This document shows positions 3,652-54,027 of a stretch of 64,000 nt of DNA, piece by piece. The DNA is from a virus. The position numbers and the translations under genes were made by a program. The notes beneath the pieces were generated by a model that worked only from the letters and a program-made list of their open reading frames with translations, was not told the DNA's origin and did not search any database. Positions within the stretch are counted from its first letter, which is position 1, and every line of letters begins with the position of its first letter. The stretch covers positions 32,281 to 96,280 of IMG/VR virus record IMGVR_UViG_3300050026_000055; one strand, written 5' to 3'.

Positions 3652-3817
3652 ATTTCCTCCCTAATTTTTCAAACATCCGATCAAACCAATACCAACGAAT
3701 TATAGATAACGCTGTGCTTGTTTTCTTTGTTATTTTATACGATTTGCCTTGTAAGAGGATAATATCTCCTACATCATTGTCCTCTATCTCAGCGCCGTCA
3801 TAATTCCAGCTTACCAT
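3638..3817 (-). CDS. hypothetical protein
   Basis: GGAGGAG RBS before ATG at 3817; couples to next gene. Confidence 0.5.
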   Translation of the reverse strand: MVSWNYDGAEIEDNDVGDIILLQGKSYKITKKTSTALSIIRWYWFDRMFEKLGRKFERR

Positions 3818-3901
3818 TTTCTCCTCCAAAGAGATAGCAGAATGCTGACACCAAGCACAACAAGAACTACAAACAGAAATTCAATTAACTTTTCCATAGT
3901 A

Positions 3902-6114: not shown

Positions 6115-6318
6115 TTAATTAAATATTCGATAGTCCGCGACTTGGGTGTGTTTGCTGTAATTACACGGACCGCAAAGTGGCTGGATGTTATCAATATTGC
6201 TGGAGCCACCCTTAGATACGGGAATTATGTGATCCGCAGTTGGCTTGTTAGTTGATGTGTATTCTATACCGCAGCATAGACATTTATTTCCATGCGATAT
6301 TCTTGGGTTGACATGCAT
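6115..6318 (-). CDS. minimal or truncated HNH endonuclease
   Basis: DHIIPVSKGGSSNIDNIQPLCGPCN, nearly identical to the C-terminus of the 56832..57341 HNH. Confidence 0.7.
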   Translation of the reverse strand: MHVNPRISHGNKCLCCGIEYTSTNKPTADHIIPVSKGGSSNIDNIQPLCGPCNYSKHTQVADYRIFN

Positions 6319-6323
6319 TTTCC

Positions 6324-6731
6324 TTACTTGAAGATGGTTAAAGGCCCCATATCCACAATCCGAGGATGAAGCTCTGGCTGGCCGATGATTATGTCCAAAA
6401 AAAACCTTGATTCCACATGGCGCAGGTCGGCCCAGAACATTCCGCCTTTTGCATAATCCTGAGTGTTATCGTAAATTGCCTCAATTTCGTGCAGCAATTT
6501 CACAAACGAGGGTTCCCAAATCGAAGGGAATACCAATTTTGGCTGTTCAATCGTCGCACTAAATTTGTGTAAATTCTGTAGAACTTCTAAATGCGTTCCC
6601 CATCCCGCTCGTATCCTGTTCATTATACAGGACATAATAAGACAGGACGCAAGGTGTCCACCATAAGGTAAACCGTGCGTGTAACCAACCAATACAATTT
6701 GTCCACGAAGGAAATCATCTTGACGTAAAAT
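6324..6731 (-). CDS. cell wall hydrolase (SleB/Hydrolase_2)-like protein, probable ATT start
   Basis: SCIMNRIRAGWG and DYAKGGMFW resemble SleB-like hydrolases; AAGGAGG lies 6 nt before in-frame ATT. Confidence 0.5.
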   Translation of the reverse strand: MLRQDDFLRGQIVLVGYTHGLPYGGHLASCLIMSCIMNRIRAGWGTHLEVLQNLHKFSATIEQPKLVFPSIWEPSFVKLLHEIEAIYDNTQDYAKGGMFWADLRHVESRFFLDIIIGQPELHPRIVDMGPLTIFK

Positions 6732-7306: not shown

Positions 7307-9470
7307 GTATACCAGCTCTGTCAGACTTCGGCGGTTTGTTGCCTTTGCCGACTCCCTGAGTCACGGCAGTACTTTGAGCTGCATTTGCCAAACCTGTAGT
7401 CACCGGACTACTGGCAATTTTGCTACCAGCCCCAAATGTTTTCCAAAGAGCAGGATGAGTGCTCAAAAATTCCAAAACACTCTGGCCTGCCTTCATACCG
7501 CCAGCAGCACAAGAAAGCCCAACAATAACGGCGGCAGTTTCTACAGTATTATGACCAGTCAATTCAGTTGCTACACCGGCTCCACCAGCTACGCCAGCAA
7601 TTACACCAGCTTTTACTAATCGCTGCACCATCTGTGCGTTCTTAGCGTTAGAGATTACCTGTTGAGCAAACTTTCCGATTTCAGGCGGCATGTTTACCGG
7701 GCTTGGTCCTGTGCCAAACAATAGATTGAAGTTATCTTCCGTCAGCGTCTTTTGTGCTTTCGTAACCTGTTTTAACAAATCGCCCGGATCAAAACGACCG
7801 GTTTCCTTGTTTACAGCATCATCCATCCATGTCTTGAAAACATCTCTGCCGATTGGAAGCATTTTTTCACGGCTACCGATTAGATCACGTAGCGCGCTTA
7901 CCTTGCCATTAGAATCTCCTGACAACAGTTCTTTGCCTAAATCGTTGACAGCTTTACCCGGCTCTGTCTCAGCTAATCGTGAGATAGCCTTTGACTCCAT
8001 AAGAGCATTAGTGGTTCTATAATTACCACGCAACTTGGTATACTGATCTGCAACGGATTTAAGTTGAGGATCAGTCTTACCAGCTTTGTCAGCCATTTGT
8101 TGAATCGTGTCGTCCACGGATGTCATCATTTGCCGCCAAGTACGAGAATTGATGTCACCAAAGCCCATTCGACTCGTCGCGGCGTAATCATCTGCTCCTT
8201 TTCTAAGAGCCTGACGAAATGAAATAAGATCATTAATGGACCACGGTTTTACTTCCACTGGTTCAGCTTTTCCAGCAGGAGAAAAACCTTCCTCATAATT
8301 AAAAGTTCCCTCAGCCGCATCAGCCGCCTTAGCTGCCGGAAGTTCTCCCTTTTCTAAATTAGAAAGAAGATTCTTGGTTTTAGCATCAAATCCTTCCGGT
8401 GCTCTAGCTTGTGCAACAAATGGGTGTGTCTGTGCCGCTTCGTCTTCAGTGCCGGCCAGTATTTTACCTGCACGGCTAGCGATGGGATTGTCTTTAATAT
8501 CTATTGTTTGACCTTGCAATTTTTCTTTAATGTCATTAATACCGTGTTCAAAGTCGGTATGCATCTGCAATCGTTTGGCTTCAATCTCACTTCTGACTGC
8601 ACCGACAACTTCAGTCTTTTCCGGCGCTGTCTTTGCAACTTTAGCTAACTCATCAAGAGTCTTACCGGCTTTTGCACCAGCAGCCAAACCGCCTTTAATA
8701 GCCGCACCAGCCGCACCAACCGTGCCAGAAAGAGCAGCCATTGCACCGCCCTCTTTCAAAGCCTGACCGGTGTCACCAGTTTTAACTTTAGTCTGACCTG
8801 CCTGTACTGCGCCTTGACGAACGGCGTTGCCGACCACATTAGCAGCTTCAGGATGCTTTGCTACCATCTCTGTTCCATACTTCAACGCATTTACAATGCG
8901 TGGAGATAGTTCAAGAGTCTGAGCAATTTTAGCAGCCTTCATTAACTTAGCTCCGGTAGCTAACCCAGCCAAAGCAGGATCACCAAGAATAAATTCTGTC
9001 AAACTTTCGCCAGCATATCCTATACTTTCTGCAGTACCTTTAGGCGTAAGATCGGTTTGAAGTTGGCCTTGTGCATCTCGCATCTCAGAGCCGGTGGGTG
9101 AATCTTCAGGATTGATGCCGGAATATTCGGACGGCAACATTTGTTTGGTATTAGTAGGCACCGCATTTACAGCAGACCTAGCAATTCCTGAAATAGTTGA
9201 TCCAATGCCCTTCATGTATCCAGTAGCCGCGCCAAGCAAACCACCGGCTACTCTGGTAGCCCCCGCTTGGTTAGTGGCTGCATCTGAACCACTTAAAGGA
9301 CCGGCAGGAATAGCCTTCATTCCGTTTTGTGGAATCTCGACATTGCCGCTAGTATAGCCAGAACTAGACGCACCATTGCCCGCCTGAGATTGATCTTCAG
9401 GAGCAGGTGTAGAAGTTGGAGTCTGCCCCGGAAAGCTAACATTACCTGATGTATAGTCATTGCCTGCCAT
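7245..9470 (-). CDS. internal virion (DNA ejection) protein
   Basis: 741 aa, Ala/Gly-rich helical; lies after the transglycosylase-bearing core protein. Confidence 0.55.
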   Translation of the reverse strand: MAGNDYTSGNVSFPGQTPTSTPAPEDQSQAGNGASSSGYTSGNVEIPQNGMKAIPAGPLSGSDAATNQAGATRVAGGLLGAATGYMKGIGSTISGIARSAVNAVPTNTKQMLPSEYSGINPEDSPTGSEMRDAQGQLQTDLTPKGTAESIGYAGESLTEFILGDPALAGLATGAKLMKAAKIAQTLELSPRIVNALKYGTEMVAKHPEAANVVGNAVRQGAVQAGQTKVKTGDTGQALKEGGAMAALSGTVGAAGAAIKGGLAAGAKAGKTLDELAKVAKTAPEKTEVVGAVRSEIEAKRLQMHTDFEHGINDIKEKLQGQTIDIKDNPIASRAGKILAGTEDEAAQTHPFVAQARAPEGFDAKTKNLLSNLEKGELPAAKAADAAEGTFNYEEGFSPAGKAEPVEVKPWSINDLISFRQALRKGADDYAATSRMGFGDINSRTWRQMMTSVDDTIQQMADKAGKTDPQLKSVADQYTKLRGNYRTTNALMESKAISRLAETEPGKAVNDLGKELLSGDSNGKVSALRDLIGSREKMLPIGRDVFKTWMDDAVNKETGRFDPGDLLKQVTKAQKTLTEDNFNLLFGTGPSPVNMPPEIGKFAQQVISNAKNAQMVQRLVKAGVIAGVAGGAGVATELTGHNTVETAAVIVGLSCAAGGMKAGQSVLEFLSTHPALWKTFGAGSKIASSPVTTGLANAAQSTAVTQGVGKGNKPPKSDRAGIRDVYQGTALPLGGNSAKEAP

Positions 9471-9479
9471 TATTTGTCC

Positions 9480-12398
9480 TTATTTTGTCGCTCCCACACC
9501 AAGATCGTTGGGGTGTGCCCATTGTCCGGTCTGAGGATTCTTAACTGCAATTAATGCTCCATTTTTATACAAAGCGTTGCCTTGTATTGTCTTAGGATCA
9601 GGAAGATCGTTGGGTAATTCCACAGAAGGTGCCTGTGTCTTTCCCGTTAGTTCATTGACAGTCTTTCCACCCTTACCTGCGCCAGAAGCACTACCTGTAA
9701 TGCTGCCGCCACTCTTCATGTTTCCTAACAATTCGTTTACATAAGGATTGTTAATTTTCTGAATGGCCTTTACGGTATCTGGATAAATTAGATTATGGAA
9801 ATCTTCATTGAATGATTGCTTCCATTCTTCATTCAACGGAACAATACGAACAGCAGCCGTATGTGCCATTTCTTGAATTGAAGAATAAACGTTTTGCCAT
9901 GGTGATGTATCCTGAGATACCTGTGCTGCCATCTTTCTAGCGTCATCTGTCAAAGCGTGCTGATTGTTCAACAAGTTCTGCCAATCGGTAGAAGCCGTCT
10001 GCATGGCAACTTTAAATGCATTCCAGTCTGTATTGGTTCCAAATTTATCGTTCAACCATGCCATAGTCTTGTTGCTGTATTCAGAACTATTAAGATCAAT
10101 GCCGCTGCTTGCTTTAAGTTTATCCAAAGCGGTCAATGCGCCAGCCATGTGACCAAGAGACGTGTTGGCATTTTTAATGGCTGCTCCCTGACTAGTGGTG
10201 TTCGATCTGCCACTACCGGCAAAGTTTTCAAACAAACGAACCTTAGATTCAACTTCTTCTGGATTAAAGTCAGGATTACGCTTGTGGGCTTCTTGCTCCA
10301 AAGCTTGTCTACTGGCTTCATTACGAAGACTGGTGACATGCTTCAAATCAACCATTGACGGTCCACCCGGCACTTTATTTCCGTTTTTGTCAACACCGGA
10401 CAGTTGTGTAATTAGGTCGTCATTGTTTCGGATTGTATCCTCTCTAGACTGTTCCTTCAGACGCTCTGTTTTACCAACTGCCGCGTCAGCCTTTGTCTGC
10501 TCCGTGTTATGCAGTTCAGCCAAACGCAGTTTTTCTCTGTAATCGTTGATGAAGGATTGTCCTTGTAATTTGCCGTCTGGACTTTGCAGCAGACTCTTCA
10601 ATCGGTTTCCTGATTGCGGGTCGAAAGTGACTTTACCGCTCTTTGCCTGTTGGTCCAACATTTTGTCAATAGAAGATGGTTCGTTGCCTTTGCCGTCCAA
10701 AAATCCATTCATTCCACCGGGCAAACGATTGTACACGCCTACATCAGCTTTGGTTATACGTCCGGAACCTGCTGCGTCCATTACATCAACAGGTTTCATA
10801 GTAGGTTGAGGTAGTTCGCCTGATTCCTTTTGATCCTGTTGCTGCTGTTCAGTAGGCATTCCAGCCTTGTTGTGTACATCGTTGACGTACTTCTTAGTTT
10901 CAGGATAATTAGGCACTCCTCCGGCCTTGTTTACCGCAGGTTCACCAGCATTGTAGGCAGCTATAGCCTTTGTAGTATCTCCTTTGTATGCCTTCAACAA
11001 ATCGGACAGTAAATGCGTACCAGCATCTATGTTCTGTGCAGGATCAAATGCATCAGTAACTCCATACTTCTTGGCGGTTGCTGGCATTAATTGCATCAAT
11101 CCTTGAGCACCCTTTGGACTTAACGCATTAGGATTTCCCTTTGATTCAGTGTGCAATACAGCATTTACTAGACTGACAGGAACATCATACTTTGTAGCTG
11201 CTGTCTGAGTAGCGTCAGTAATATTTGTCGGAAGCGTAAAGTTTGTTTTCTTTATCTCAGTCGCAGGTTTTGCTGCTCCTGCCCCAACTACCTCAGTCTT
11301 TGTGGCAGATTTTCCTGTTGCATAACCATCCAAGTCTTTTTGCATATTCTTATAACCAGCTACTTCATTGATACCAGCTATAATTCGATAAGCACGTTCC
11401 TGATAGTCTTTGGGCAAGTTTAACATCTTTCCGTCTTTATCGACGTAACCTTGCACTTTATACTTAGCCAACAAATCTTTTACATCTTGCGGGAAGTCAA
11501 CCACTTTGCTTGGATCAATAATGGCGTATTTAAATTCGTATTGTTCTACACCATTTTGCATTAATGGCATTCCATCATCACCAATTTTTGGCACAATTCC
11601 AATGGGGATAGCACCATCTTTTGTTACATGATATTGCGCTAATTTGCTTGGCAGTTCACTAGCAGTGGCATAATCCTGAACACCATTAATACTCTGCAAA
11701 GCTGTGTGCAAAGATGTATACATGTCTACCATCGACTGTTGGTGTTCCATGCCCAATTTGTTTGCCTTCAACTGGTTGGTATATAAATCAAGGTTATTTT
11801 TAGTGATAGATGCCTGACGAGCAAAATCATCTTTCGCTCGTTGCTGTTGGCTTTGATCTATTTCTTTTGCATGAGCCATGCCGGCCTGACCGCCAGCAGC
11901 CAACCCGCGAGCGCCTGCTCCCGGACCACGCTGACCAGCACCAGCAAATAAACCTGTCAATGCGCCAGCAACAATGGAGTTGGCAAGTTGTGATTTAGTC
12001 TGTTGAACCTGAGTCCTTTCCATCTTGCCTGTATCAGCGTTCAAATTGTAGGTATATTTTGGGCCAGCTAACGCGCCCATTATGCTCCTAAAAATATCGT
12101 GCGGCTGATGTGACTGACTCGGACCGGCACCGGTGCCACTCTTATCAATGCCATTGTCATTCGATTGCATCGTTTTTTGAACGTCATTGTCAGCCGACTG
12201 CATAGTTTTTTGGACATCATTCGGCTGTGCTGCCGATTGTGCTGGCGGTTGAGCCGCTGGCTGTCCCATAGATTGTGCTGGCGGCTGAGTCGTGCCAGAT
12301 GCAGACGAAGAACTGTCTACAGGCGTACTAGACACAGGCATACTAGCCTGCGGCTGTATCTGATCGTTCGGTTGTTCGTTAGGAGCGTCGAGTGCCAT
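9480..12398 (-). CDS. internal virion protein with soluble lytic transglycosylase (SLT) domain
   Basis: HTESKGNPNALSPKGAQGLMQLMP, AIAAYNAG and ETKKYV SLT motifs. Confidence 0.85.
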   Translation of the reverse strand: MALDAPNEQPNDQIQPQASMPVSSTPVDSSSSASGTTQPPAQSMGQPAAQPPAQSAAQPNDVQKTMQSADNDVQKTMQSNDNGIDKSGTGAGPSQSHQPHDIFRSIMGALAGPKYTYNLNADTGKMERTQVQQTKSQLANSIVAGALTGLFAGAGQRGPGAGARGLAAGGQAGMAHAKEIDQSQQQRAKDDFARQASITKNNLDLYTNQLKANKLGMEHQQSMVDMYTSLHTALQSINGVQDYATASELPSKLAQYHVTKDGAIPIGIVPKIGDDGMPLMQNGVEQYEFKYAIIDPSKVVDFPQDVKDLLAKYKVQGYVDKDGKMLNLPKDYQERAYRIIAGINEVAGYKNMQKDLDGYATGKSATKTEVVGAGAAKPATEIKKTNFTLPTNITDATQTAATKYDVPVSLVNAVLHTESKGNPNALSPKGAQGLMQLMPATAKKYGVTDAFDPAQNIDAGTHLLSDLLKAYKGDTTKAIAAYNAGEPAVNKAGGVPNYPETKKYVNDVHNKAGMPTEQQQQDQKESGELPQPTMKPVDVMDAAGSGRITKADVGVYNRLPGGMNGFLDGKGNEPSSIDKMLDQQAKSGKVTFDPQSGNRLKSLLQSPDGKLQGQSFINDYREKLRLAELHNTEQTKADAAVGKTERLKEQSREDTIRNNDDLITQLSGVDKNGNKVPGGPSMVDLKHVTSLRNEASRQALEQEAHKRNPDFNPEEVESKVRLFENFAGSGRSNTTSQGAAIKNANTSLGHMAGALTALDKLKASSGIDLNSSEYSNKTMAWLNDKFGTNTDWNAFKVAMQTASTDWQNLLNNQHALTDDARKMAAQVSQDTSPWQNVYSSIQEMAHTAAVRIVPLNEEWKQSFNEDFHNLIYPDTVKAIQKINNPYVNELLGNMKSGGSITGSASGAGKGGKTVNELTGKTQAPSVELPNDLPDPKTIQGNALYKNGALIAVKNPQTGQWAHPNDLGVGATK

Positions 12399-31957: not shown

Positions 31958-34900
31958 TTAACTGATAGCAGAACCAGCGTCGATATAACGCAGACGAATC
32001 GTGGTATCAGGCCCAAGACTAACTGTAAAATGGACCTTATCATTCTGTTATCGTGATATTATTTAATTCCTTGGCGAGTTGTTCGACTTCTCGTACTCGT
32101 CGTAGAACTGTGTCGTCATCAACTTGTTTTCCACAAGCACGCGACATGTTAATTTTCATCCAAGAGAATAAAGTAAACTTTGATTTACTCACTTGGCATG
32201 ACATATAAGCGCTATTTTGATTTGAAGAGCAGCATGGAACAAGATTTCCCGGTTTGTGACCAAAATTTGAATCAACTCTGTCCAGCCCCCAAACCTTGCT
32301 ATCTGGCGGATAAGCCCCGCAGTAAGCACATGGCCGTGGTTTTCCAGTTTCATCCAAATAATAATGAATCGCTTGCGTTGGATTATCAAACCCAAATTCT
32401 CGATTCTCTACTTTATCTGTCCATTTCATCCCTAAGTATCGTTTTCTTAAAGATGGATAATATCCTCTTGACATTATCTTTGCTTTTTGTGAAAACTCCA
32501 TGCCAGCTTTTACATAAGCCGTTAAGAGTCCTTCTTTTCTCCAAATGCCCGCCCAACTTTCGATAGTTACAGGTAAAATACCGGTTCTATTGGTAATTTC
32601 CTTGTACGCTCTCTTAGATTGCAGCAGTTCAAGCACTTGTTGCTTCTGTTCTTTCGAATATGTCATAATTAACTAATTATACCACAGGTTAAGCATTTCT
32701 GTCAACCTCTTTTGATTGTTTTTCTCAAAAGTTCGGACTATCACATCACCACGTTAGTGGTGCTCTCTTGTTTAGTCTCTCACGGTGCCTTGCGGCTTCC
32801 GCCTTGTTGTCATTTCAGATTTCAAGTCAATTAAAGAGAGTTCTCACATTTGCTTTTCAGCAAAGTGACCCATACTTTTTAGGATGTCCATCCCGGAATC
32901 AAACCTTCCGGATCAGCTACCGATGGCTCGGCATTTTGCACGACATTGCATTTTATATTCTGCCACTCGCCCGAATCATAGCCCGTATCGCCCTGTGCGC
33001 CAAGATTAATGGCGAACACGCCGTCACGACCAAAGATATAGGTACGAAGCGCAGTCAGACCAGTAATCGCACCAGAGCCGGGATTGTAGTTGGCAGTCGT
33101 AGTAACAAGGTTTGTCTGGAAGAAATGAACGCCGGAAGCCGGAAGTTCGATAACTTCAGTCAAATCTGTACTAATCAACTCGTCCATCTTTGCAAAACCC
33201 ACCGGGGTGTGCTTCAAAATGTCGATAGGAGCATCGTTGCTATTATCGGCCAATATGTCACCAAGAGCAAACGGGTGAATACATTTGTGTTTAGGCTAAA
33301 TCAGAAACAATTTCTGAACCCTGATTCACATCAGGTGCGCTCTTACTGTCACCAGTAAGATCAGACTCTCTCATCACAGATTCATCATCTGCGTTTAGCG
33401 TATTAGTCGTTACGGATAATCCACGTTTATTTAGTGCTTGACACTCAAGCATCAGTTCCTTACGCCTATCTACATTTTTTAGTTCAGTACCACAAGACTG
33501 ACCTAAACGAATGTACTCAAGAATAAGTTTTGCTTGTTTTCTTTTTATCACTAAATACGGCAGAATTCCGAGAATCAATTCCTCAGTATTCTTTTTACCT
33601 TTAGGACGCCAACTATAAGCAATTTTATGTATTTCTTTTGCTCTACGGTGATGATAATAAACACCGCCAAAGTTTTTTATCAACCACTCCATCAGTTCGA
33701 TGTTAGTGTTTGTTATTTCAACCCTTTGGTTGGTGAAATTATATTGCCTTTCTTCACCAAGTTTAGTTGTGTAATAATTACCGTGATTTTGATAAATTGA
33801 AAATGTTCCTTCACCATCAAACAATCCGGCCAGATACGACCAGTACACCTTGTCAGGTGTTTTCATTTGGACTCTTTCCTCGGTATTGTCTCAGAAGCGT
33901 TCTGAGAGTTTCACCGATATAGCTAAATTATAGGGCGCTATTATAAACTAACGCCAGCAAACGACTTGCTTGCTTCATCGAACGGACGAACCGAACGACC
34001 AGCAAGAGACTGCACTTGGTTACGAATCTGAGACAGACTCAGAGTTGTAAAAGCAGTGGTACTTGCAGCAGCCAACTTTACAGCTACCGAACTATCAACA
34101 GTAGCCGCGCCATCAACAACCGCACGCACCAGAGCCGACAAAGACTCACCAAGACGATAAGACATCTCGCGAGCCACATTCTCAACCGTATTATCAATGG
34201 CAGTTGCCAAACTAAGCGAACTGAAATTTGCATAATCCTGTGTTGTTTAGGCTACCTGTATCACTACAGGAGCACTCTTATAGTTTTACCTATAAGATCG
34301 GACTCTATCATCACGTAAAATTACGTGTCTAACGTATTAGTCTCTAGGGATTTCCCACTATTAAGAGCCATACAAGCTACATGAAGTTCGGCTCGTCGTA
34401 AAGGATTTTCTTGTCCTCTCATACGAACCCATTCAAGTGCTATCAACGCCTGCTCTCGTTTTATGATATGATAAGGAAGAGTGCCAAGAAGAATAATTTC
34501 CATTCTCTCGTAACCACCATTTACAAACCATTCAAAACAGGTCTGTACACCTAGTTTACCCTTCTGCTTCGGCCTAAATTCTCCACCAAAATATCGTACC
34601 AACCAGCGCATCAACTTCATTGATGTGTTTGCTACCGATACTTTTAGATCGTATCCGAAGTATTCGTTGCCCTTTTTAGTTTGAAGTGTTGTTCTTGATA
34701 TTCCAATACAACCTTCGGCATCAATTGCCATAGCTAAACGAGCCCATTTAGTCTTATCATTAGTCATAATCTTAGGTCTTTCCTCGGTATTGTCTAATCA
34801 GACTGAGCTGAATAGGTTTTCACCGATATAGTTAGATTTTGATTACCGAGAACGCCAATTAAGCAAAAGCGTACTCGCCGATCACAGCAGTCGTAGTCAG

Positions 34901-35143
34901 GACGGAAACCTGAATCGGATTGCCGACTGTACCTTCCGAAACCTGAGAGGTATTGCCTGCCAGCGGAACGTACATAAACATCTGATACTGATTGCCGGAC
35001 TTAGTAGGCAGATCGAGACGTTCTGCACAAGCTACAAACGGAGTTTGAGCCTTTAGATTCTCCCGAAATTTTTTGTCGTAGTACTTCACTGTGCTCTGAG
35101 GGAGGTTACCAGTGTTGTTTACTGCAGGATTAAAACCAGCCAT
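31958..35143 (-). CDS. major capsid protein (N4 gp56-like), spliced: join of 35143-34868, 34237-33951, 33281-32881, 32040-31958; 348 aa
   Basis: Exons join in frame (276+287+401+83=1047 nt) giving IGEYA|DYANFS, SFAGV|IHPF and GWTSY|KVHF, matching N4-gp56-family motifs; follows scaffold gene. Confidence 0.9.
32040..32666 (-). CDS. intron-encoded HNH-family homing endonuclease with N-terminal HTH
   Basis: CAYCG...GLDRVDSNFGHKPGNLVPCC; related to the 50125 and 54035 endonucleases. Confidence 0.75.
   Translation of the reverse strand: MTYSKEQKQQVLELLQSKRAYKEITNRTGILPVTIESWAGIWRKEGLLTAYVKAGMEFSQKAKIMSRGYYPSLRKRYLGMKWTDKVENREFGFDNPTQAIHYYLDETGKPRPCAYCGAYPPDSKVWGLDRVDSNFGHKPGNLVPCCSSNQNSAYMSCQVSKSKFTLFSWMKINMSRACGKQVDDDTVLRRVREVEQLAKELNNITITE
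32041..32880 (-). mobile_element. group I intron 3 in major capsid gene
   Basis: Exon ends UCCU; IGS UAUGGG pairs with both exons; P3 CUCUCUU/AAGAGAG, P7 GACUA/UAGUC; ORF in P9 region; terminal G at 32041. Confidence 0.85.
32676..32705 (-). promoter_or_regulatory. intron-internal promoter for the HNH gene
   Basis: TTGACA-18 nt-TATAAT with extended TG, 9 nt before ATG. Confidence 0.7.
33282..33950 (-). mobile_element. group I intron 2 in major capsid gene
   Basis: P1 GGCGU/GCGCC with U.G, P10 UAUU/AAUA, P3 UUUAGC/GCUAAA, P7 GACU/AGUC, terminal G at 33282; core similar to intron 1 (TATATCGGTGAAA...GACAATACCGAGGAAAG). Confidence 0.9.
33291..33866 (-). CDS. intron-encoded LAGLIDADG homing endonuclease
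   Basis: WSYLAGLFDGEGTF; ILPYLVIKRKQA. Confidence 0.9.
   Translation of the reverse strand: MKTPDKVYWSYLAGLFDGEGTFSIYQNHGNYYTTKLGEERQYNFTNQRVEITNTNIELMEWLIKNFGGVYYHHRRAKEIHKIAYSWRPKGKKNTEELILGILPYLVIKRKQAKLILEYIRLGQSCGTELKNVDRRKELMLECQALNKRGLSVTTNTLNADDESVMRESDLTGDSKSAPDVNQGSEIVSDLA
34238..34867 (-). mobile_element. group I intron 1 in major capsid gene
   Basis: 5' splice after U with P1 GAGUACGCU/GGCGUUCUC (U.G), P10 GAUUAUGC/GCUUAAUU, P3 UCUAAC/GUUAGA, P7 GACU/AGUC, terminal G at 34238. Confidence 0.9.
34321..34767 (-). CDS. intron-encoded LAGLIDADG homing endonuclease
   Basis: WARLAMAIDAEGCI motif; C-terminus overlaps intron P7/P3. Confidence 0.85.
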   Translation of the reverse strand: MTNDKTKWARLAMAIDAEGCIGISRTTLQTKKGNEYFGYDLKVSVANTSMKLMRWLVRYFGGEFRPKQKGKLGVQTCFEWFVNGGYERMEIILLGTLPYHIIKREQALIALEWVRMRGQENPLRRAELHVACMALNSGKSLETNTLDT

Positions 35144-37372: not shown

Positions 37373-39475
37373 TTACGCAATAGTAGGTGTTTCAGCAGCA
37401 CCTTGAAGACCATTGGCGCTAGGTTGACCAGTTTCAGCCTGACCCATAGCAGAGTTTCTGAATGACTCTCTAACAATGTCTCGCTTAATACGATTGTCAG
37501 TTCCTTCGTCGTCCAACTTCTGTTTGTTTTCAAACTTCTGTTGTTCGGATTGCTGACTAACTGCGGCCTTGCTTTGTGCCAAGGCTTGTTGAGACGCTGC
37601 TGCCTGTTTCTGTTTCATTTCAGGAGTCATCTTCTTAATGATGTCCTGCTTGTTCTTCCATTCACTTGACTCCATCCACATTTCAAGTATTGGTTTAAAA
37701 TCGATATACTCTTCGTTGATGTCAGCCAAATTCTTTTGGATGTTAGGTTGTGAGAATATCTGAGTAATAAGAGTCATGGACTGAGCCATAATTCGCTTTG
37801 CAGCCAGACTAGCTCCTGCCAAGACTTCATACTCATGTTTGGCATCATGGAACTCTTGCATGTCCAAGACGTATTCTTTGCCTAACTCTTCGCCGATGAT
37901 CGATTTGATTTCAGCGTCCGAAATGTAATGAAAAATCAAATAATCTAGAATGTATAAGAATGGTTTAAATACCTGTTCAATGAAGTTATCAAGTGGTCCA
38001 TCTAAGCGAGTGGCAGATGCACTGGCCAGAATTCCGGCACCACCAGCAGTCCTACCCATCGATGAACGCGGACCTGCGGTACTTCCTTGAACCAACATTT
38101 GGTCTGCACCGGAACTAGATTCACTTGCTTTTTCCGATTCGGATAATGCTTGCCATACTTCAGGAGGAACCTTGGGAACCTCAAGAAGATGATAAGCTTC
38201 CTTGGCATTGCCGTCTACGGTAAGAATTTTGCCTAATCCGGTACGAATCATCTGAGTGGGGCTATTTGCACCACGATTGCGCAGATAAATCGGATTTACA
38301 CCAAAACTCAACACCTTCAAAATAGCATTGATTGTTCCTTGATCGACTCGTTGGTTTTGACCAACGATTAATCCAAGGCCCATTCCATAAAATGCTTTTG
38401 GGCGATTCCACCAGTTAGCAGATAAAAATGGTATCTGTTTAAACTTATTTTCGCCTGTGTATATTACCTTTTTGCGATCCAGAACTAAAATCTTTCGCTG
38501 CTTGTCCCAGTATTCCAGTATTTCTAGCTTTTTAAGCAACGGGTCTGGGCCAACCTTGATGTTTTCATCCTCGGCGTGATGCACAGCGCCCGTAATATAC
38601 GCCTGCTGATCGGTTGCTAGTTTTGGGGCAACATTGTCTTCTGGTGGCAACCACAGGTTTATTAATGATGTCGGAAAACTCCAACCCTCTAATGATCTTC
38701 CTTTTTCATCAGAGTTGGTTTCCTTCAATTCCTTCATTTGATAGAAGTCCATGTAACGAACATCAATCACATGGTCAGCTTCTCTAATGTCACCGACCAG
38801 TAGGTGTGGATCAACAAGCACTCTAGCAATTGGTCGATACTCAAAAAATGGTCTAGGAACAAATTTAACAGTAGTTGTTATATCAGGTTCATCATCTAAA
38901 GGAACACTTACATTTGATCCTGCGACTCCTGATGGACCAGACTTAATGGTAGTAGTCGTTGCTTTTCTAGTAACGATTTCAACTTTTTCGTAACAAATTC
39001 CCCACTTCCAAATACTTGTGCCAAGTTGAGCCATTTGTTCCAGACCCCACTTGGTATCGCGTCTAAATTTACAGGCGTCCAACAAGTAAGAGAACATGGC
39101 TGTTTTAGCAGTAGTAATGTCTTGCGATGTGCCCGGTCTAGGACGAAGAATCATGGGCGGATCAGCATAGAATAATCCTTTATACAACTGCGGCACCACT
39201 GCATTACAAATCTTAGCTACAGTAAATCTCTGTACGTTCGGTTCCAGAACATAGGTGTTCTCATAAACCGTCATAGGTCGTGGATTTTGATAAAGTAAGT
39301 CAACATCTCTCCAGAGCAAAGCCCACTGCTTGTTAGCGATAAAATCTTCAGCAACCGATGCTGACTGAACCACTAACGCTAAGTCTCCGCTTTTTGTTTT
39401 TATCTCGCCGTCATTAGTAAAATCCTCTTTTACTAAATTGCGGTTGGCGTTGCCTTCTGATTCAATCATCGACAT
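37373..39475 (-). CDS. portal protein
   Basis: 700 aa directly after terminase; FYGMGLG...NQ and RTAGG portal-like motifs. Confidence 0.8.
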   Translation of the reverse strand: MSMIESEGNANRNLVKEDFTNDGEIKTKSGDLALVVQSASVAEDFIANKQWALLWRDVDLLYQNPRPMTVYENTYVLEPNVQRFTVAKICNAVVPQLYKGLFYADPPMILRPRPGTSQDITTAKTAMFSYLLDACKFRRDTKWGLEQMAQLGTSIWKWGICYEKVEIVTRKATTTTIKSGPSGVAGSNVSVPLDDEPDITTTVKFVPRPFFEYRPIARVLVDPHLLVGDIREADHVIDVRYMDFYQMKELKETNSDEKGRSLEGWSFPTSLINLWLPPEDNVAPKLATDQQAYITGAVHHAEDENIKVGPDPLLKKLEILEYWDKQRKILVLDRKKVIYTGENKFKQIPFLSANWWNRPKAFYGMGLGLIVGQNQRVDQGTINAILKVLSFGVNPIYLRNRGANSPTQMIRTGLGKILTVDGNAKEAYHLLEVPKVPPEVWQALSESEKASESSSGADQMLVQGSTAGPRSSMGRTAGGAGILASASATRLDGPLDNFIEQVFKPFLYILDYLIFHYISDAEIKSIIGEELGKEYVLDMQEFHDAKHEYEVLAGASLAAKRIMAQSMTLITQIFSQPNIQKNLADINEEYIDFKPILEMWMESSEWKNKQDIIKKMTPEMKQKQAAASQQALAQSKAAVSQQSEQQKFENKQKLDDEGTDNRIKRDIVRESFRNSAMGQAETGQPSANGLQGAAETPTIA

Positions 39476-39488
39476 CTGTTAACCTCTC

Positions 39489-41429
39489 TTAGAACAAATC
39501 CTTAAATGGATCAACATCACTCAAAACTTCCGGGCTATTCTCCATATGGAAAACTGTAACCGGATTATCCTCAAGTGCATAATTGATGTTATATTTACTA
39601 TACTTGCCTAAACCATAAACCATATCATGCATCTCTTGTGCTTGACGATCTGCTACATATTGAGAGGAAACAAAGTTTATTTTAGCATCCATATCAGCAT
39701 AGGCCGCAAACTGATCCACTAATATTGATAAACCAGAAACGATGTCATCGTGTGTTCCGTTTGGAAACTTACTTAACTCGTTATAAATATCTTCCATACC
39801 GGCGCATGAATTTGAAAAATATAGTCTCTCATCACCTAACAATCTTAACACCGGCTTGGCTTTTACTTCTTTTGATTTTGTCTTATTTCCGGCACCCAGA
39901 GAAACGTATTCAACTGGTATGCTTATACTCAATTTATCCATCTCTCTACGAAGTTCACGGCTAAACCAGCGAACTCCTACAGAATCCTCGATTGCTATGC
40001 GCTTTGGCTTCCATTTGAATCCAACTCCCGCGATTACTGCTGGAAGTTCAAATTCATTGTATCGTCCTCTAGCCATGTCAATGACGTAGAATTTACCAGC
40101 AAATATTAACGATGTGAGAATGACTGTGTAATCTGCAAAACTCTTGGTTGAATATGCTGTGTCCACTGTTGTGACAATCATACCGCTTGACGGCAATGAG
40201 TTGGCTGGAATGGTTCGTCTAATTAATAATTCTTTTGGAAACTTGACTTGATGAACCTTACGCGGATCGTTCAGATATTTTAACGCAAATCCAACAGGAT
40301 CACGCCGTAGTTCTGTCATCAAAAACTTATAAGACAACCCTTCAGGAAACCAAAGAACCCAGTCGGCTTCTTTCATTTCCTCTTCAATTTTACCTACTTT
40401 AATAGCTTCATCAGTAGGCCACCATGCTGCCTTCAAATACACAATTATGGTTGGTGCTTCGCCGTCTGCTTTTAGTTTGTCTTCAGCAGCCATGTCTAAA
40501 CCATAACTGTCCATTTCATCGTACCATGTTCCGATTTTGTCGTAAAATCCATAGGTATGAAGCATGGCTTTGTTGATACTAATTTGGCGATTAACAGATT
40601 CCAGACGAGTAATCGTGCAACTATTTTCGTTACTAACCACGTCATCTAACTTCATTATACAGTAGTGGAATCCAGACAATGCCTGTTCAATACTGGCGGC
40701 TGTAACCGTCGCTTCTTTATCCGGCATTCTATTGGCCGGTGTATTAAACTCTGCTTGTTTATCATCTCCCGGTTTAATGCAATGTTCAGGAAATAAAATC
40801 TGAAACAAACTTGGTGTTCCATCTTGCGTTAATTTAGGACCATATGCCGGTTTGTTGTCAGCTCCTAACTTGCCTGTACTCTGTAAAGTAAAATGCTCTC
40901 TTAACTCACCCACAAACTTTGTAGCCAATGCCAAAGTTGCAGTCATAATCAAAATTGTAACTTCGGGAAAACAAACAATCCATTGAGCACAATCAGCCAC
41001 ATCAATGCTGGACTTAAACCCGCCTCGCGGAACTAACAGCAATCTTTCTTTTAGATCACTATAGGACTTTGCAAAATCTTTGAAACTGTTAAAATTGGCC
41101 GGGTCTTTTTTAACGAAGAAGGAGTTGCATATCTCTTCGTGCGTTCGTAAAGTTGTGTCTCTATATTTCTCTAAGACATGACACAAAAAGTATAGGTTTG
41201 TTTGGCAAAGAAATCGATAAAATGCCAGTTCTTTTCCGTCAACTTCCAACTTGTTTTCGTCACAAAACTTCTTCCAACTATTAAGTACCAATTCGCGATC
41301 CGAGTCAATCAATCGTTTCAAACTAAGAGAAGCCAGTCTATCTAATTCTTTACGATCCATTCCTTTATACTGATAGTTTGGGTTATTTATTGCTTGCTCT
41401 GCTAATTCTTTTAGTTTTTCTATCTTCAT
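39489..41429 (-). CDS. terL: terminase large subunit
   Basis: LLLVPRGGFKSS Walker A, MKLDDVV Walker B, VDTAYS and FPNGTHDD nuclease motifs. Confidence 0.9.
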   Translation of the reverse strand: MKIEKLKELAEQAINNPNYQYKGMDRKELDRLASLSLKRLIDSDRELVLNSWKKFCDENKLEVDGKELAFYRFLCQTNLYFLCHVLEKYRDTTLRTHEEICNSFFVKKDPANFNSFKDFAKSYSDLKERLLLVPRGGFKSSIDVADCAQWIVCFPEVTILIMTATLALATKFVGELREHFTLQSTGKLGADNKPAYGPKLTQDGTPSLFQILFPEHCIKPGDDKQAEFNTPANRMPDKEATVTAASIEQALSGFHYCIMKLDDVVSNENSCTITRLESVNRQISINKAMLHTYGFYDKIGTWYDEMDSYGLDMAAEDKLKADGEAPTIIVYLKAAWWPTDEAIKVGKIEEEMKEADWVLWFPEGLSYKFLMTELRRDPVGFALKYLNDPRKVHQVKFPKELLIRRTIPANSLPSSGMIVTTVDTAYSTKSFADYTVILTSLIFAGKFYVIDMARGRYNEFELPAVIAGVGFKWKPKRIAIEDSVGVRWFSRELRREMDKLSISIPVEYVSLGAGNKTKSKEVKAKPVLRLLGDERLYFSNSCAGMEDIYNELSKFPNGTHDDIVSGLSILVDQFAAYADMDAKINFVSSQYVADRQAQEMHDMVYGLGKYSKYNINYALEDNPVTVFHMENSPEVLSDVDPFKDLF

Positions 41430-47665: not shown

Positions 47666-50125
47666 ATGTCTGAAACAGCAGAACTAAAACCGATGGTATT
47701 GATGCCGCCTCTAAACCCAACACTGGTTACAGATGGCGCTGGTCTTGAAAAAATTAAATCATTTCTAAATCGATCTGTAGATAAGATTATCGGATGGGAC
47801 AAAGAAACAACTCCGACGAAGGATTTTTATTGGCGGAAGGATCGGACTTGGCAGATTGGTGACAAAACCGAGCAATACGTTGTCGATCTGCTGGCGTTCG
47901 TTGATGGAGATTCTGACCTGCTGTATTCCTGTCAAGGTGAATACGGCAAAAAGATGAGTCCTAAGTTACAGCCGGTAATTGATGTGTTTGATCCGGCATT
48001 GTGTACCAAAGAATTTTTGAAGGTCGGCGTAAATCTTGGATTTGAATATGAGCAGTCGCGTTGGAACTTCGGGCAGAGAACATGGAATTTCTATTCCGTG
48101 GATATGGTTGAGCGTGTAATTTGCGCTGGACTGCATTCGCTGAAGGATTATGACTACTATTCTTTGGCCGAAATGATGGCTCGTTATTTCAAGATGTATG
48201 TTGATAAAGAGTTGCAGACATCGTTTAATTTAAGTAACCCTCTGACGCAGGCACAAGTTGAGTATGCCGCGCTAGATACTAGGCTACCACTGGCGTTGCG
48301 TCGATCACAGCTCAAGACTATTAAAGCAGATGGACTTGAAGAGACGTGCAAAATTGAGAATGATGCTATCGGTGCATTTGTCGATATGCACATTCATGGA
48401 CAGCGCATTAATAAAGAAAAGTGGATCATACGCGACAACAAGTACCGCGCTGAAGTAGCGATAGCGATTGCCGAATTAGACAGTCATTTTCTACCAATCG
48501 TAGGTTCTAAGAACGTACAGATTACAGACGCAGAAATAGCTGAAGCCGACCTGAAGTGGAAATCATACAACAAGATTTCTGATGATGAGTTGAGTCTGAA
48601 AAATGAAATAAAGAAATCAAAAACTGCGACTGGCATAGAATTACTAATTGAAAAAAAGAATGGCCTTGAAGTTGCTCGTAAAATTGAGAAAGAATATTAC
48701 AAGCAGATAAAGTCCGAACTTGGTAAAAAACGAACCAAAGTTAACAAACTAATTGACAAGTGCGAAGGAGAAGCATTAATCAATTACGGCTCTGGTGCTC
48801 AACTGTTGGCTGTGTTTGCCGGTATGAAGGGACTCAAGAGTTTAAAAGACACTGAGGACGATACTCTTGAAAAATTCAAGAATGTTCCGGTAATTGCTTC
48901 TTTACAGAAGTTTAGGAAAGCAAGCAAGCAGGTAAGCACATATGGTATACAGTGGACACAACAGTGGGCCACTAAACCGTGTAATGAAGAAGGTTGGCTG
49001 CATCCGGGGGATGGCAGACTTCATTCTAAATTTAATCAGTTAGAGGCAGAGACAGGACGAAGTAGTAGTTCACAACCTAATGGTCAAAATCTGCCAAAGG
49101 ACAAAGATACTCGTTCTTGTTTTATCGCTGATTCACCGGATGAAGAAGAGCCGGAAGGTTATTGCTTAGTTACTGGTGATATGGCTGGTGCCGAACTTAG
49201 AATTCTAGCTGAATTGTCAGAAGAGAAGGTTTGGCTAGAAGCATTTCTAAAAGGGCAGGATGTTCATGAAGTTTGCGCCGAAATGATGTATCCGGCCGAG
49301 TGGCCGGGATGGGCAGTAGACGGTTGTGCTTTTTATAAAATCAATCCTGAAACTAATGAGCCGTTTAAGTTTAAATGCGATTGTCCTATTCATAAGGAGA
49401 AAAGAGACGAAGCTAAAGTACCAAACTTCTTGATTCCGTATGGTGGCGGTCCACCGAATCTTGCTGCACAGACCGGAAAAACTATTGAAGAGGCTAAAGC
49501 TATTTTAGCGCACCATAAAGAAAGCTTTCCTACACTTTGGAAGTATCTTGATGAAAGCGGCAAAATGGCCAAATTGAACAAAGAGTCTCGTTCAATGTAT
49601 GGTCGCAGGCGGCTGTTTCCTGATCCGACTTGGGAATTGGCAATTGAAAAAGCAAAAGATGATCGTGAAAAACAACTCAAGTTACCTAAAGAAGAGGCTG
49701 ATAAAAATGTTGCGACATTCTTAGCGTTACATAATCGTAAGCCGACAAGCGCCGAAAAATGGTTTCTTGTTCATAGAATGCCAAATCAAAAAGAAATCGC
49801 AAATGCGTATGCTGCGATGTTTAGCACAATTGAAAGAAGGGGCAAGAATCACGCAATTCAGGCTAGCAATGCTGACATAATTAAGCTGGCTATGGGCTGC
49901 GGTCACGATAAAAACGGCAAGCCTTATTTGTGGCATATTTTTCCAAAGTTAGGAGCTAAGTTGATAGCAATGATACATGACGAACTGCTTATTCAGGTGC
50001 CAAAAAGAAATGCCGCACTTGTAGTGGAGGCTATAGGCGATGCTTTTAAACGAGCGGCGGCAGAAAAATTTACTAAAATTGCCATGGAATTCGACAGCCA
50101 TGTGTCAGATTGCTGGACTAAATAA
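47666..50125 (+). CDS. DNA polymerase family A with 3'-5' exonuclease
   Basis: ExoI DKET, YAALD, ETGRSSS, motif A DMAGAELR, motif B AKVPNFLIPYG, motif C IHDELL. Confidence 0.92.
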   Translation: MSETAELKPMVLMPPLNPTLVTDGAGLEKIKSFLNRSVDKIIGWDKETTPTKDFYWRKDRTWQIGDKTEQYVVDLLAFVDGDSDLLYSCQGEYGKKMSPKLQPVIDVFDPALCTKEFLKVGVNLGFEYEQSRWNFGQRTWNFYSVDMVERVICAGLHSLKDYDYYSLAEMMARYFKMYVDKELQTSFNLSNPLTQAQVEYAALDTRLPLALRRSQLKTIKADGLEETCKIENDAIGAFVDMHIHGQRINKEKWIIRDNKYRAEVAIAIAELDSHFLPIVGSKNVQITDAEIAEADLKWKSYNKISDDELSLKNEIKKSKTATGIELLIEKKNGLEVARKIEKEYYKQIKSELGKKRTKVNKLIDKCEGEALINYGSGAQLLAVFAGMKGLKSLKDTEDDTLEKFKNVPVIASLQKFRKASKQVSTYGIQWTQQWATKPCNEEGWLHPGDGRLHSKFNQLEAETGRSSSSQPNGQNLPKDKDTRSCFIADSPDEEEPEGYCLVTGDMAGAELRILAELSEEKVWLEAFLKGQDVHEVCAEMMYPAEWPGWAVDGCAFYKINPETNEPFKFKCDCPIHKEKRDEAKVPNFLIPYGGGPPNLAAQTGKTIEEAKAILAHHKESFPTLWKYLDESGKMAKLNKESRSMYGRRRLFPDPTWELAIEKAKDDREKQLKLPKEEADKNVATFLALHNRKPTSAEKWFLVHRMPNQKEIANAYAAMFSTIERRGKNHAIQASNADIIKLAMGCGHDKNGKPYLWHIFPKLGAKLIAMIHDELLIQVPKRNAALVVEAIGDAFKRAAAEKFTKIAMEFDSHVSDCWTK

Positions 50126-51603: not shown

Positions 51604-52071
51604 ATGAAACAGGTTCACCTTGGTAATGGCATGTCGGCATTAGTTGATAATACCGACTACGATAACATACGCACATATTCGTGGCACGCCGTTAAGTATC
51701 CAAAGCGTAATACGTGGTATGCGGTCACTGCTATTGGGGGCAAGACTGTTCAAATGCATCGGCTTATTTTAGGTTTATGTGCCGATGATCCACAAGTTGA
51801 CCATGCCAATTGTTACGGCCTAGACAATCAGAGACACAACATTAGGATAGCAACTGGGTCGCAAAATGCGATGAATCGACCTCCCAAACAGGGTCGCAGG
51901 TTCAAAGGCATCTACAAAACAACTACTGGTAAATGGGCCGCAAAAATTCAAACTCCGGGTAACGAACAGCATTATCTCGGTGTATGTACTTTACCAGAAG
52001 ACGCAGCGCGGCTTTATGATGCTGCGGCAATGATATATTTTGGAGAGTTTGCATATCTGAACTTTCCTTAA
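51604..52071 (+). CDS. HNH-AP2 homing endonuclease
   Basis: MHRLIL...VDHAN..GLDNQRHNIR; FKGI...WAAKI...AARLYD.AA...FGEFAYLNF. Confidence 0.85.
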   Translation: MKQVHLGNGMSALVDNTDYDNIRTYSWHAVKYPKRNTWYAVTAIGGKTVQMHRLILGLCADDPQVDHANCYGLDNQRHNIRIATGSQNAMNRPPKQGRRFKGIYKTTTGKWAAKIQTPGNEQHYLGVCTLPEDAARLYDAAAMIYFGEFAYLNFP

Positions 52072-52353
52072 CGAGAACGCATGTCAACCATTTAATGCAG
52101 TATAATCGGACCCGGTTAGCATATACCGGCAGGTCCACCATACTAATACATACTTCATAAATGTTGTTGTTTTAATTTGGGCCTGACAAGATTCGACGGT
52201 TGTATCTTGGTTAAGTGTTCGTGCAACGGAAGTATGTCCCGTTTAATAAATACATATAAACTAAAAAACGCCAATGAGGAAACTCTGGCTATGGAAGCCG
52301 CCGCGTAAGTTGCGGTTTTCGGGGTCTGGCCCACCTAGCAACAGAACGGGCCA
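52070..52353 (+). ncRNA. ssrA: permuted two-piece tmRNA: acceptor piece ~52070-52140, coding piece 52179-~52353
   Basis: 3' end CAGGTCC-A-CCA at 52140 precedes 5' end GGGCCTGACAAGATTCGAC at 52179; acceptor stem has G3.U70; tag ANEETLAMEAAA* at 52270-52308. Confidence 0.88.
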
Positions 52354-52374
52354 ATTATTTTTTATAGAGGATAA

Positions 52375-54027
52375 ATGACAGAAGACTCGATGCAGATGGG
52401 AGAATTTTCTCGAACGATTTTTAATGAACGGTATGCTCAGGAAGTAGAAGGAAGAAAAGAAACTCTTCAAGAAGTTGGTCAACGATGCGCTAACGAGGTA
52501 GGTAAGTCAGTAGGCATGAAGAAAGCTTTGCGCGGGGAGATAGCTCGCTTGATTACACTCCGCAAGTTTCTTCCCGGTGGCAGGTATCTCGCACAAACCG
52601 GAAAGCCATACCATCAAGTAAATAACTGCCTGATGCTTAGAGCAGAAGATAGTCGTGAAGGTTGGGCTGAAATAATGCACAATGCTTCTCTCGCTTTGAT
52701 GACAGGCGCAGGCATTGGTGTTAATTATAGTCATGTTAGACCAGAAGGAAAACCTATCCGCAAAACAGGCGGTACAGCAACCGGACCGCTAGCATTGATG
52801 CAGATGGTCAACGAATCGGCACGATGGATTAGACAAGGTGGAACACGTAGAGCAGCGTTGTGGGCCGGATTGAACTGGAAGCACGCTGACATTCATAAAT
52901 TCATTACATTAAAGAACTGGGTTCCAGAAGTACGAGCATTAAAAGCTAAGAACGTAGACTTTCCGGCAGCAATGGATATTACCAATATATCTATCGGGCT
53001 GGATGACGAATTTTTTAAAGCGTACAACGACGAGAAGCATGCATTAAACTCTCTTGCCACTTCCGTCTACCGTACTGCTGTCGAACGTATGTTAAAAACA
53101 GGGGAACCGGGGTTTTCAATTGACACAGGAATTAACAATGGCGAAGATTTGCGAAATGCTTGCACCGAGTTGTGTAGTCGTGATGACAGTGACATTTGCA
53201 ATCTCGGTAGCATTAATATGTCTAGAATCGATACCTTGGAAGAAATGCGGGAAGTTACTGAAATTGCTACAGCGTTTCTTTTAGCTGGCACTGTGTATAG
53301 CGATGTGCCTTATGCCAAGGTCGATCAAATAAGGACTAAGAACCGTCGTCTTGGTTTAGGGTTAATGGGAATCCATGAATGGCTTTTGAAGCGTGGCAAG
53401 AAATATGGGCAGGACGACGAACTGGCAAAGTATCTGGAAGTCTACCGTGACGAGAGTAATAGAGCGAGTGCTCAGTACGCCGAACAATGGGAATTGAGCA
53501 AGCCATTGAAGTGTAGGGCAATTGCCCCAACGGGCACTATAAGTATTTTAGCCGAAACTTCTGGGGGAATTGAACCCATATTTGTTTCAGCGTATAAGCG
53601 TTTGTACTATAAAGGAAATCAACGGTATTACCAATATGTAGTTGACCCTACAGCTAAGAAACTTATAGAAAGTGGCATAGAACCAGACAACATTGAAGAT
53701 GCTTATGTGTTGGCTGAAACTCCCGAAAGGAGAGTTAAGTTTCAAGCATGGGTTCAAAAATATGTAGACCACTCTGTATCATCAACAGTTAATTTGCCCC
53801 ATTGGGGATCAGAAATTAATAATGAAACTAAAACGATAGAATTTGGCGACATGTTGATAAAAACTTTACCAAGTATACGTGGTATTACTGTCTATCCAGA
53901 TGGAGCGCGATCAGCGCAACCAATGCAGCCTGTAAGTTACAAAACCGCCATAAAACATGTTGGCGAAGTGTTTATAGAAACAAGCAATATTTGCGATATA
54001 ACAGGTGGCGGGACATGTGGTTCGTGA
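52375..54027 (+). CDS. nrdJ: class II (B12-dependent) ribonucleotide reductase
   Basis: FLPGGR, NNC, NACTE, CNLGSIN, APTGTIS, C-terminal Cys pair; no small-subunit gene nearby. Confidence 0.85.
   Translation: MTEDSMQMGEFSRTIFNERYAQEVEGRKETLQEVGQRCANEVGKSVGMKKALRGEIARLITLRKFLPGGRYLAQTGKPYHQVNNCLMLRAEDSREGWAEIMHNASLALMTGAGIGVNYSHVRPEGKPIRKTGGTATGPLALMQMVNESARWIRQGGTRRAALWAGLNWKHADIHKFITLKNWVPEVRALKAKNVDFPAAMDITNISIGLDDEFFKAYNDEKHALNSLATSVYRTAVERMLKTGEPGFSIDTGINNGEDLRNACTELCSRDDSDICNLGSINMSRIDTLEEMREVTEIATAFLLAGTVYSDVPYAKVDQIRTKNRRLGLGLMGIHEWLLKRGKKYGQDDELAKYLEVYRDESNRASAQYAEQWELSKPLKCRAIAPTGTISILAETSGGIEPIFVSAYKRLYYKGNQRYYQYVVDPTAKKLIESGIEPDNIEDAYVLAETPERRVKFQAWVQKYVDHSVSSTVNLPHWGSEINNETKTIEFGDMLIKTLPSIRGITVYPDGARSAQPMQPVSYKTAIKHVGEVFIETSNICDITGGGTCGS

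Follow-up and report, generated by a model that had tools for sequence, protein, structure and literature searches.

Group I introns in the td, nrdB and nrdD (sunY) genes of bacteriophage T4 carry open reading frames (ORFs) for homing endonucleases that are looped out from peripheral helices, with the sunY ORF in a 3′-proximal position, and the homing of T4 introns is accompanied by exon co-conversion. Three such introns reportedly interrupt a single gene, orf142, of Staphylococcus phage Twort, in work that Landthaler and Shub are said to have published in 1999, and their self-splicing was reportedly shown by experiment. Capsid genes are also among the genes affected. Mycobacteriophage LittleE has one capsid intron, which was proven by reverse transcription PCR (RT-PCR) and N-terminal sequencing (Pope et al., 2013, PMC3706429), in a paper that also cites a capsid intron in Tuc2009, and in the crAss-like Zeta group a capsid gene has been described as lying in five fragments, with group I intron domains encoded in three segments (Yutin et al., 2021, PMC7886860). 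Genomes of Jug phages each hold ~18 group I introns, and metatranscriptome data support these (PMC12880540). Here we describe a phage major capsid gene that, in our reading, is split by three group I introns, each carrying an endonuclease-like ORF. It lies on the minus strand of a 64,000-nucleotide stretch of DNA (the window), which comprises bases 32281–96280 of the 96,280-bp IMG/VR virus record IMGVR_UViG_3300050026_000055, a genome with direct terminal repeats that is rated complete. All positions below are those of the window, and all parts of the capsid locus are on its minus strand.

The nearest named relative of this phage is Tunturiibacter phage Tunturi_3 (PP885686), a 97.6-kb podovirus isolated from tundra soil on an Acidobacteriota host, in whose description introns go unmentioned (PMC11924767). 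A tblastn search with its 343-amino-acid 'major head protein', gp6, against 50,697 phage records returned only Tunturi_3 itself and three weak uncultured matches, and IMG/VR held 243 capsid-gene relatives, of which we fetched and analysed 80 (loci L003–L082). In the window, the ORF list presents only capsid-like fragments interleaved with three other ORFs. A first-pass annotation made from the DNA alone had joined four exons in frame into a 348-amino-acid protein, and alignment with the intronless gp6 showed its coordinates to be right. Exon 1 (34868–35143; amino acids 1–92) was taken from the ORF list, aligns to gp6 and matches TIGR04387 (E = 7.6e-5) and the phrog_1357 major head protein family, whereas the other three exons were delimited from the sequence and the gp6 alignment: exon 2 (33951–34237) runs from amino acid 93 to the first two bases of codon 188, exon 3 (32881–33281; 75% identical to the Tunturi_3 major head protein by tblastn) from the last base of codon 188 to the first base of codon 322, and exon 4 (31958–32040) from the last two bases of codon 322 to the stop codon. 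Together they amount to 276 + 287 + 401 + 83 = 1047 nucleotides, or 348 codons plus a stop.

Residues 3–348 of the joined protein aligned to gp6 with 79% identity, and the sole gap, of 4 amino acids, fell within exon 3, distant from all junctions, such that the alignment to an intronless homologue is contiguous through each of them. Junction 1 lies between codons (GCU and GAU), and the other two split codons as had been claimed, junction 2 into GU and U and junction 3 into U and AU; the junction peptides VIGEYADYANF, SFAGVIHPF and GWTSYK were likewise correct as originally given. In-frame stop codons occur 0–3 codons past each 5′ splice site, and none of exons 2–4 opens with a start codon.

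With regard to family, the capsid protein matches phrog_1357 major head protein, and its nearest-neighbour cluster in a language-model atlas is named for the N4-gp56 family, to which the first-pass annotation had assigned it. An intronless homologue scored 44 bits on TIGR04387, the model of that family (E = 1.8e-11, profile positions 4–194 of 324), below the cut-off of 60 for formal membership. The AlphaFold2 model of an intronless homologue had a predicted local distance difference test score (pLDDT) of 29.5, too low for a comparison of folds. Judged by its profile scores, the protein is thus a distant, sub-threshold relative of the N4-gp56 family.

Helix mapping recovered at each junction the features reported from the first reading, namely an exon U opposite an internal-guide G, a P10 pairing, the P3 and P7 helices, and a terminal G. 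All three introns start directly 3′ of an exon U and end in G (34238, 33282 and 32041), and in each the guide for P10 lies directly 5′ of the guide for P1. Intron 1 (34238–34867; 630 nucleotides) forms a 5-bp P1 (ACGCU/GGCGU; 34868–34872 with 34852–34856) and a 5-bp P10 (guide 34857–34861), and intron 2 (33282–33950; 669 nucleotides) a 5-bp P1 (GGCGU/GCGCC; 33951–33955 with 33934–33938) and a 4-bp P10 (guide 33939–33942), each with a U·G pair at the 5′ splice site. Both belong to a ribozyme type, here called type A, that lacks P2. Their P3 helices differ in sequence yet pair (UCUAAC/GUUAGA at 34831–34836 with 34328–34333 in intron 1, and UUUAGC/GCUAAA at 33922–33927 with 33394–33399 in intron 2). 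The remaining helices of intron 1 are P4 (34821–34826 with 34784–34789), P7 (34339–34342 with 34301–34304), P9 (34277–34296) and P9.1 (34255–34270), and those of intron 2 are P4 (33912–33917 with 33880–33885), P5 (33889–33907), P7 (33405–33408 with 33364–33367), P8 (33376–33392), P9 (33342–33359), P9.1 (33320–33335) and P9.2 (33301–33317).

Intron 3 (32041–32880; 840 nucleotides) belongs to a second type, type B, which has P2, P6a and P9.1. The first ~195 nucleotides hold its core, with P2 at 32849–32864, P3 at 32834–32840 with 32763–32769, P4/P5/P6/P6a at 32782–32826, P7 at 32774–32777 with 32736–32739, P8 at 32747–32762, P9 at 32709–32731 and P9.1 at 32687–32707; a 208-codon ORF follows, and then a conserved tail with the terminal G (32041–32050). 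These last ten nucleotides match the 3′ end of ORF-less homologues, one of which, 181 nucleotides long, occupies the identical site in L004.

Two covariance models that we built from the relatives only, one (R1) of the type-A 3′ block (P7, P3′, P8, P9, P9.1 and tail) and one (R2) of the type-B core from P3 to P9, matched all three inserts. R1 found 33282–33414 in intron 2 (96.9 bits, E = 2e-19) and 34238–34348 in intron 1 (84.5 bits, E = 1e-16), with both matches ending exactly on the predicted terminal G, and R2 found 32709–32842 in intron 3 (129.1 bits, E = 9e-23) with 27 of 27 pairs formed. The models cross-match weakly (R1 on intron 3, E = 0.05; R2 on intron 1, E = 1e-4), and types A and B, which have P7 and J8/7 sequences in common, are sister ribozyme families. 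Covariation across the relatives favors the same structures. In the type-A 3′ block, 95% of cells pair, compared with 72% in shuffles and 29–44% in slid controls, and 13 of its 20 pairs are changed on both sides. Compensatory changes were seen in P3, P4, P5, P8, P9 and P9.1: the long-range P3, which spans up to ~900 nucleotides with the ORF included, covaries across 20 introns and differs in sequence in nearly every one, P4 switches as a unit (UCGGUG/UACCGA versus UCCGUC/GACGGA), and P5 and P8 form hairpins whose sequences are unrelated. On the level of sequence and covariation, then, all three inserts are confirmed as group I introns. Elsewhere in the 96,280-bp genome, R1, R2 and Rfam found no further group I intron.

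Each insert also contains an endonuclease-like ORF, in agreement with the first reading. That of intron 1 (34321–34767) encodes a 148-amino-acid, single-motif LAGLIDADG protein (Pfam LAGLIDADG_1, PF00961, 20.4 bits against a cut-off of 23.1; phrog_5046, E = 7e-14) and extends from the P6 loop through P7 and P3′ to end inside P8, and that of intron 2 (33291–33866) encodes a 191-amino-acid LAGLIDADG protein (29 bits against the same cut-off; phrog_5046, E = 1e-24), starts in P6, covers the 3′ core in full and has its stop within the conserved tail. The two proteins are 38% identical (E = 1e-26) and thus paralogous; they contain the LAGLIDADG motifs ...IDAEG and ...FDGEG, with the acidic residue, and their sizes fit those of single-motif homodimeric enzymes. 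Type-A ORFs start just past P4′/P6, where a conserved GAGGAAAG is found that also resembles a ribosome-binding site. In both LAGLIDADG proteins, the C terminus has a conserved T-N-T-L that comes from the conserved ribozyme segment of P7, J7/3 and P3′ (34328–34345 and 33394–33410), so that constraints on the protein and on the RNA overlap on the same bases.

The ORF of intron 3 (32040–32666) lies between P9.1 and the last ten nucleotides of the intron, its stop codon spanning the 3′ splice site. It encodes a 208-amino-acid protein with an N-terminal helix-turn-helix (HTH) and a probable HNH domain of the PacI or endonuclease VII-like kind. The protein weakly matched phrog_1035 endonuclease VII (E = 1.4e-5) but no Pfam or NCBIfam model, and sequence searches of the PDB gave only weak HTH matches. 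Its AlphaFold2 model, a confident one (pLDDT 86.6), had PacI (3ldy_A) as the top Foldseek match (probability 0.99, E = 0.07), with a VIA Z of 6.6 and a root-mean-square deviation of 4.5 over 113 residues. About 100 metagenomic homologues were found, none with a Pfam nuclease domain, and CxxC, DR, H, N and C residues are invariant across 35 of them. From the predicted structure and these residues, the protein is probably an HNH endonuclease. A perfect TTGACA, an 18-nucleotide spacer and TATAAT lie at 32676–32705 on the minus strand, within P9.1 of intron 3 and 9 nucleotides upstream of the start of this ORF; by sequence, they could be the endonuclease gene's own promoter.

The distribution of insertions among the relatives is patchy. 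The capsid gene was uninterrupted in 51 of the 80, and the rest had insertions at about 15 sites (amino acids 21, 23, 27, 30–32, 53, 55, 90, 91, 92, 110, 188, 190, 317, 321 and 330). Homologous introns of relatives, on contigs from different samples, occupy the three sites of the window (amino acids 92, 188 and 321): intron 1 has homologues at the same site in L019, L048 and L059 (~80% nucleotide identity), intron 2 in L075, and intron 3 in L053 and five others as well as in L004. When the relatives were scanned with R1 and R2, nearly all of the 56 matches fell inside the capsid gene. Two pairs of loci, L068/L076 and L052/L044, have flanks that are 99.5–100% identical and differ by introns together with a divergent exon tract between them (three single-nucleotide differences in 69 nucleotides in one case and ~83% identity over 107 nucleotides in the other), which is the signature of homing with co-conversion. 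We asked whether the intronless members of these pairs, L044 and L076, could represent transcripts of L052 and L068 from which the introns had been spliced, and rejected this idea, because exon tracts that differ between near-identical flanks point to co-conversion of DNA rather than to spliced RNA. Because the sites are patchily occupied and near-identical pairs bear the mark of co-conversion, the introns are, on this genomic evidence, mobile.

Other observations among the relatives concern the same elements. In this clade the capsid gene is a hot spot for introns, and ribozymes that are otherwise homologous differ in whether the endonuclease gene lies within P6, within P8 or past P9.1. An intron in L038 (4090–4707) and intron 1 of the window (34238–34867) have homologous LAGLIDADG genes (~77% nucleotide identity) and insertion sites only 5 nucleotides apart, the former after GAGU and the latter after ACGCU, and each guide matches its own site. 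L068 and L076, whose shared sequence is 99.5% identical, are set apart by six or more insertions over 10 kb (in L068, among them 3245–3819, 6178–6708, 7334–7746 and 9136–9703), and three of the insertions between these two loci lie outside the capsid gene and are matched by neither R1 nor R2; these three may be free-standing endonuclease genes or other elements.

We propose that the capsid gene is transcribed as a ~3.2-kb precursor containing the three introns. In each of these, the internal guide would form P1 with the last bases of the exon before it, placing U·G where cleavage would occur, and P10 with the first bases of the exon after it. Guanosine-initiated excision and exon ligation would then be catalyzed by the P3–P9 core, with its conserved P7 and J8/7, to yield an mRNA for the 348-amino-acid capsid protein, while the endonucleases would cut intronless capsid alleles during co-infection, allowing the introns to spread by homing. 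Splicing, its autonomy and the activity of the endonucleases are what we infer here, self-splicing from structure. For the explanation of the capsid gene as a whole by three group I introns, we estimate a probability of roughly 0.88. Several observations weigh against it. An Rfam scan of the window at gathering thresholds returned no group I match, the introns falling below the 50-bit gathering score of RF00028; in E-value mode, RF00028 scored 25 bits on the 3′ core of intron 2 and 22 bits on that of intron 1 and left intron 3 unmatched. The large ORFs inside the introns account for these low scores, and a 254-nucleotide ORF-less insertion in L059 that is homologous to introns 1 and 2 scored 55 bits, above the threshold, and the ORF-less homologue in L004 scored 48.5 bits. 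P6a is weak in intron 1, the HNH assignment for the intron 3 ORF is weak in view of the missing Pfam match and the Foldseek E-value, and a search of metagenome contigs for the exact 27-nucleotide pattern of spliced junction 1 found no match. Finally, P1 of intron 3 consists only of CCU/GGG plus one intron pair (3–4 bp), its P10 has 3 bp, and its 3′ splice site is 627 nucleotides past the core. The pairing of intron 3 is thus the least secure part of the self-splicing claim, and to judge from its sequence this intron may need help to splice.

The same features of intron 3, its short P1 and P10 and the ORF that separates its 3′ splice site from its core, bear on an alternative in which removal does occur at the RNA level yet is not autonomous, one or more of the introns, intron 3 above all, needing a protein cofactor, a maturase or the core of a neighboring intron. 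Core-less mini-introns of the relatives, described below, cannot splice alone, which lends this idea some further weight, but all canonical helices are present and covary in the window's introns, the homologues of intron 3 at its site have an equally short P1, which is therefore apparently tolerated, and ORF-less type-B versions of 181–224 nucleotides look complete; we regard such dependence as unlikely. That gene callers find fragments only, and that split phage genes with free-standing endonucleases are known, could instead mean that selfish insertions broke the capsid gene, leaving it non-functional or expressed as separate fragments that assemble after translation. This we consider very improbable given that exons 2–4 lack start codons at their 5′ ends, two junctions split codons, the exons still encode a protein 79% identical to gp6, independent assemblies contain these introns as well, and the genome is complete, with terminal repeats, and holds a single capsid gene. 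LAGLIDADG and HNH domains occur in inteins too, and the contig is metagenomic, so inteins, group II introns, translational bypass elements and assembly chimeras also came into consideration. Against this set stand in-frame stops past each 5′ junction and insert ORFs that are out of frame with the exons, no reverse transcriptase and no group II model at the Rfam threshold was found, and the group I models match precisely, with homologous introns at identical sites in contigs from different samples, which leaves this set of explanations scarcely credible.

Two kinds of unusual intron were found in the capsid genes of relatives and not in the window. Thirteen inserts of only 40–98 nucleotides occupy six capsid sites at which other genomes carry full introns (examples are L038:3935–3982, L014:3918–3964, L071:3936–3978, L013:3567–3606, L052:195–243, L073:3787–3858, L004:3629–3679 and L017:1835–1932). 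These mini-introns keep a P1 of 6–8 bp with U·G, an adjacent P10 of 5–8 bp and a terminal G, and they contain in-frame stops, but a core cannot fit within them. Shuffled sequences equalled their pairing in 0–7 of 2000 trials, and between L052 and L073 guide and exon change together. Every assessable carrier, including two further contigs from a pattern scan, has a full intron in the same gene; the spliced mini-intron junction pattern had no match in viral contigs. Translational bypass was rejected as an explanation for the mini-inserts, because no matched take-off and landing codons restore the conserved reading and because P1, P10 and the terminal G are precisely kept. At less than even odds, these sequences may reflect a guild of capsid-gene introns, perhaps including the ribozymes of the window, in which full introns would act as shared catalysts that splice mini-introns in trans, and in which mini-introns would spread by hitch-hiking in the helper's co-conversion tract. 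Were this to hold, nature would provide an example in which one family of self-splicing introns has divided into a ribozyme acting in trans and minimal introns that depend on it.

The second kind comprises 7 of 20 type-A introns that end in A instead of G, with no accompanying change in P7 (L019:4023–4712, L048 at amino acids 53 and 92, L059 at amino acid 92, L053:2915–3903, L070:4378–5000 and L075:4117–4805). Their junctions are fixed by coding continuity, six of the seven have a P10 of 5–9 bp, and a search for alternative junctions gave no in-frame solution ending in G. The mini-introns and the A-ending introns may matter more than the capsid introns themselves.

The first-pass annotation had also described polA, nrdJ, terL and portal as intron-free. 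All four are indeed single ORFs: polA at 47666–50125, the class II ribonucleotide reductase gene at 52375–54027, portal at 37373–39475 and a 646-amino-acid ORF at 39489–41429, which the annotation took as terL and which matched no Pfam family. Just upstream of the reductase gene, on the plus strand at 52027–52355, Rfam matched a permuted transfer-messenger RNA (tmRNA; RF04321, 62 bits) and an alpha tmRNA (RF01849, 59.9 bits).

Automatic annotation misses the capsid gene here and in roughly a third of the relatives, and the exon model corrects this for a clade of soil phages that is widespread and linked to Acidobacteriota. With the most highly expressed late gene depending, in our reading, on three splicing events, the locus would lend itself well to studies of intron load, of homing and of competition between phages in soil. 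The clade offers two related ribozyme families, 15 or more insertion sites, and endonuclease genes that occupy P6, P8 or the 3′ tail of the same ribozyme.

Among known systems, the T4 introns differ from those described here in residing in nucleotide-metabolism genes and encoding GIY-YIG or HNH enzymes, whereas the present ones reside in a structural gene and encode two LAGLIDADG proteins and a probable HTH–HNH protein. Twort orf142 resembles this locus in having three group I introns in one phage gene but differs in the gene and in the intron families. The first reading had made much of a capsid gene being split by introns, which overstated its novelty, as capsid-gene introns, including several per gene, have been published (PMC3706429; PMC7886860). 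LittleE shares with our phage an endonuclease-carrying intron in a capsid subunit gene, the rule of an exon U and an intron G at the boundaries, and an intronless relative for comparison, but it has one intron proven by RT-PCR, whereas the three here are deduced from sequence. The crAss-like Zeta group is alike in that its major capsid gene is split by several endonuclease-encoding group I introns, likewise recognized in metagenome-assembled genomes. Those phages, however, are Bacteroidota gut phages with introns genome-wide that were identified by protein domains only, whereas ours belongs to soil relatives of an Acidobacteriota phage, has introns in the capsid gene only, and allowed ribozyme structure and exact junctions to be mapped against an intronless homologue. 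A capsid gene with three introns therefore has precedents, and this is the first that we could find in the literature for the present clade of soil phages.

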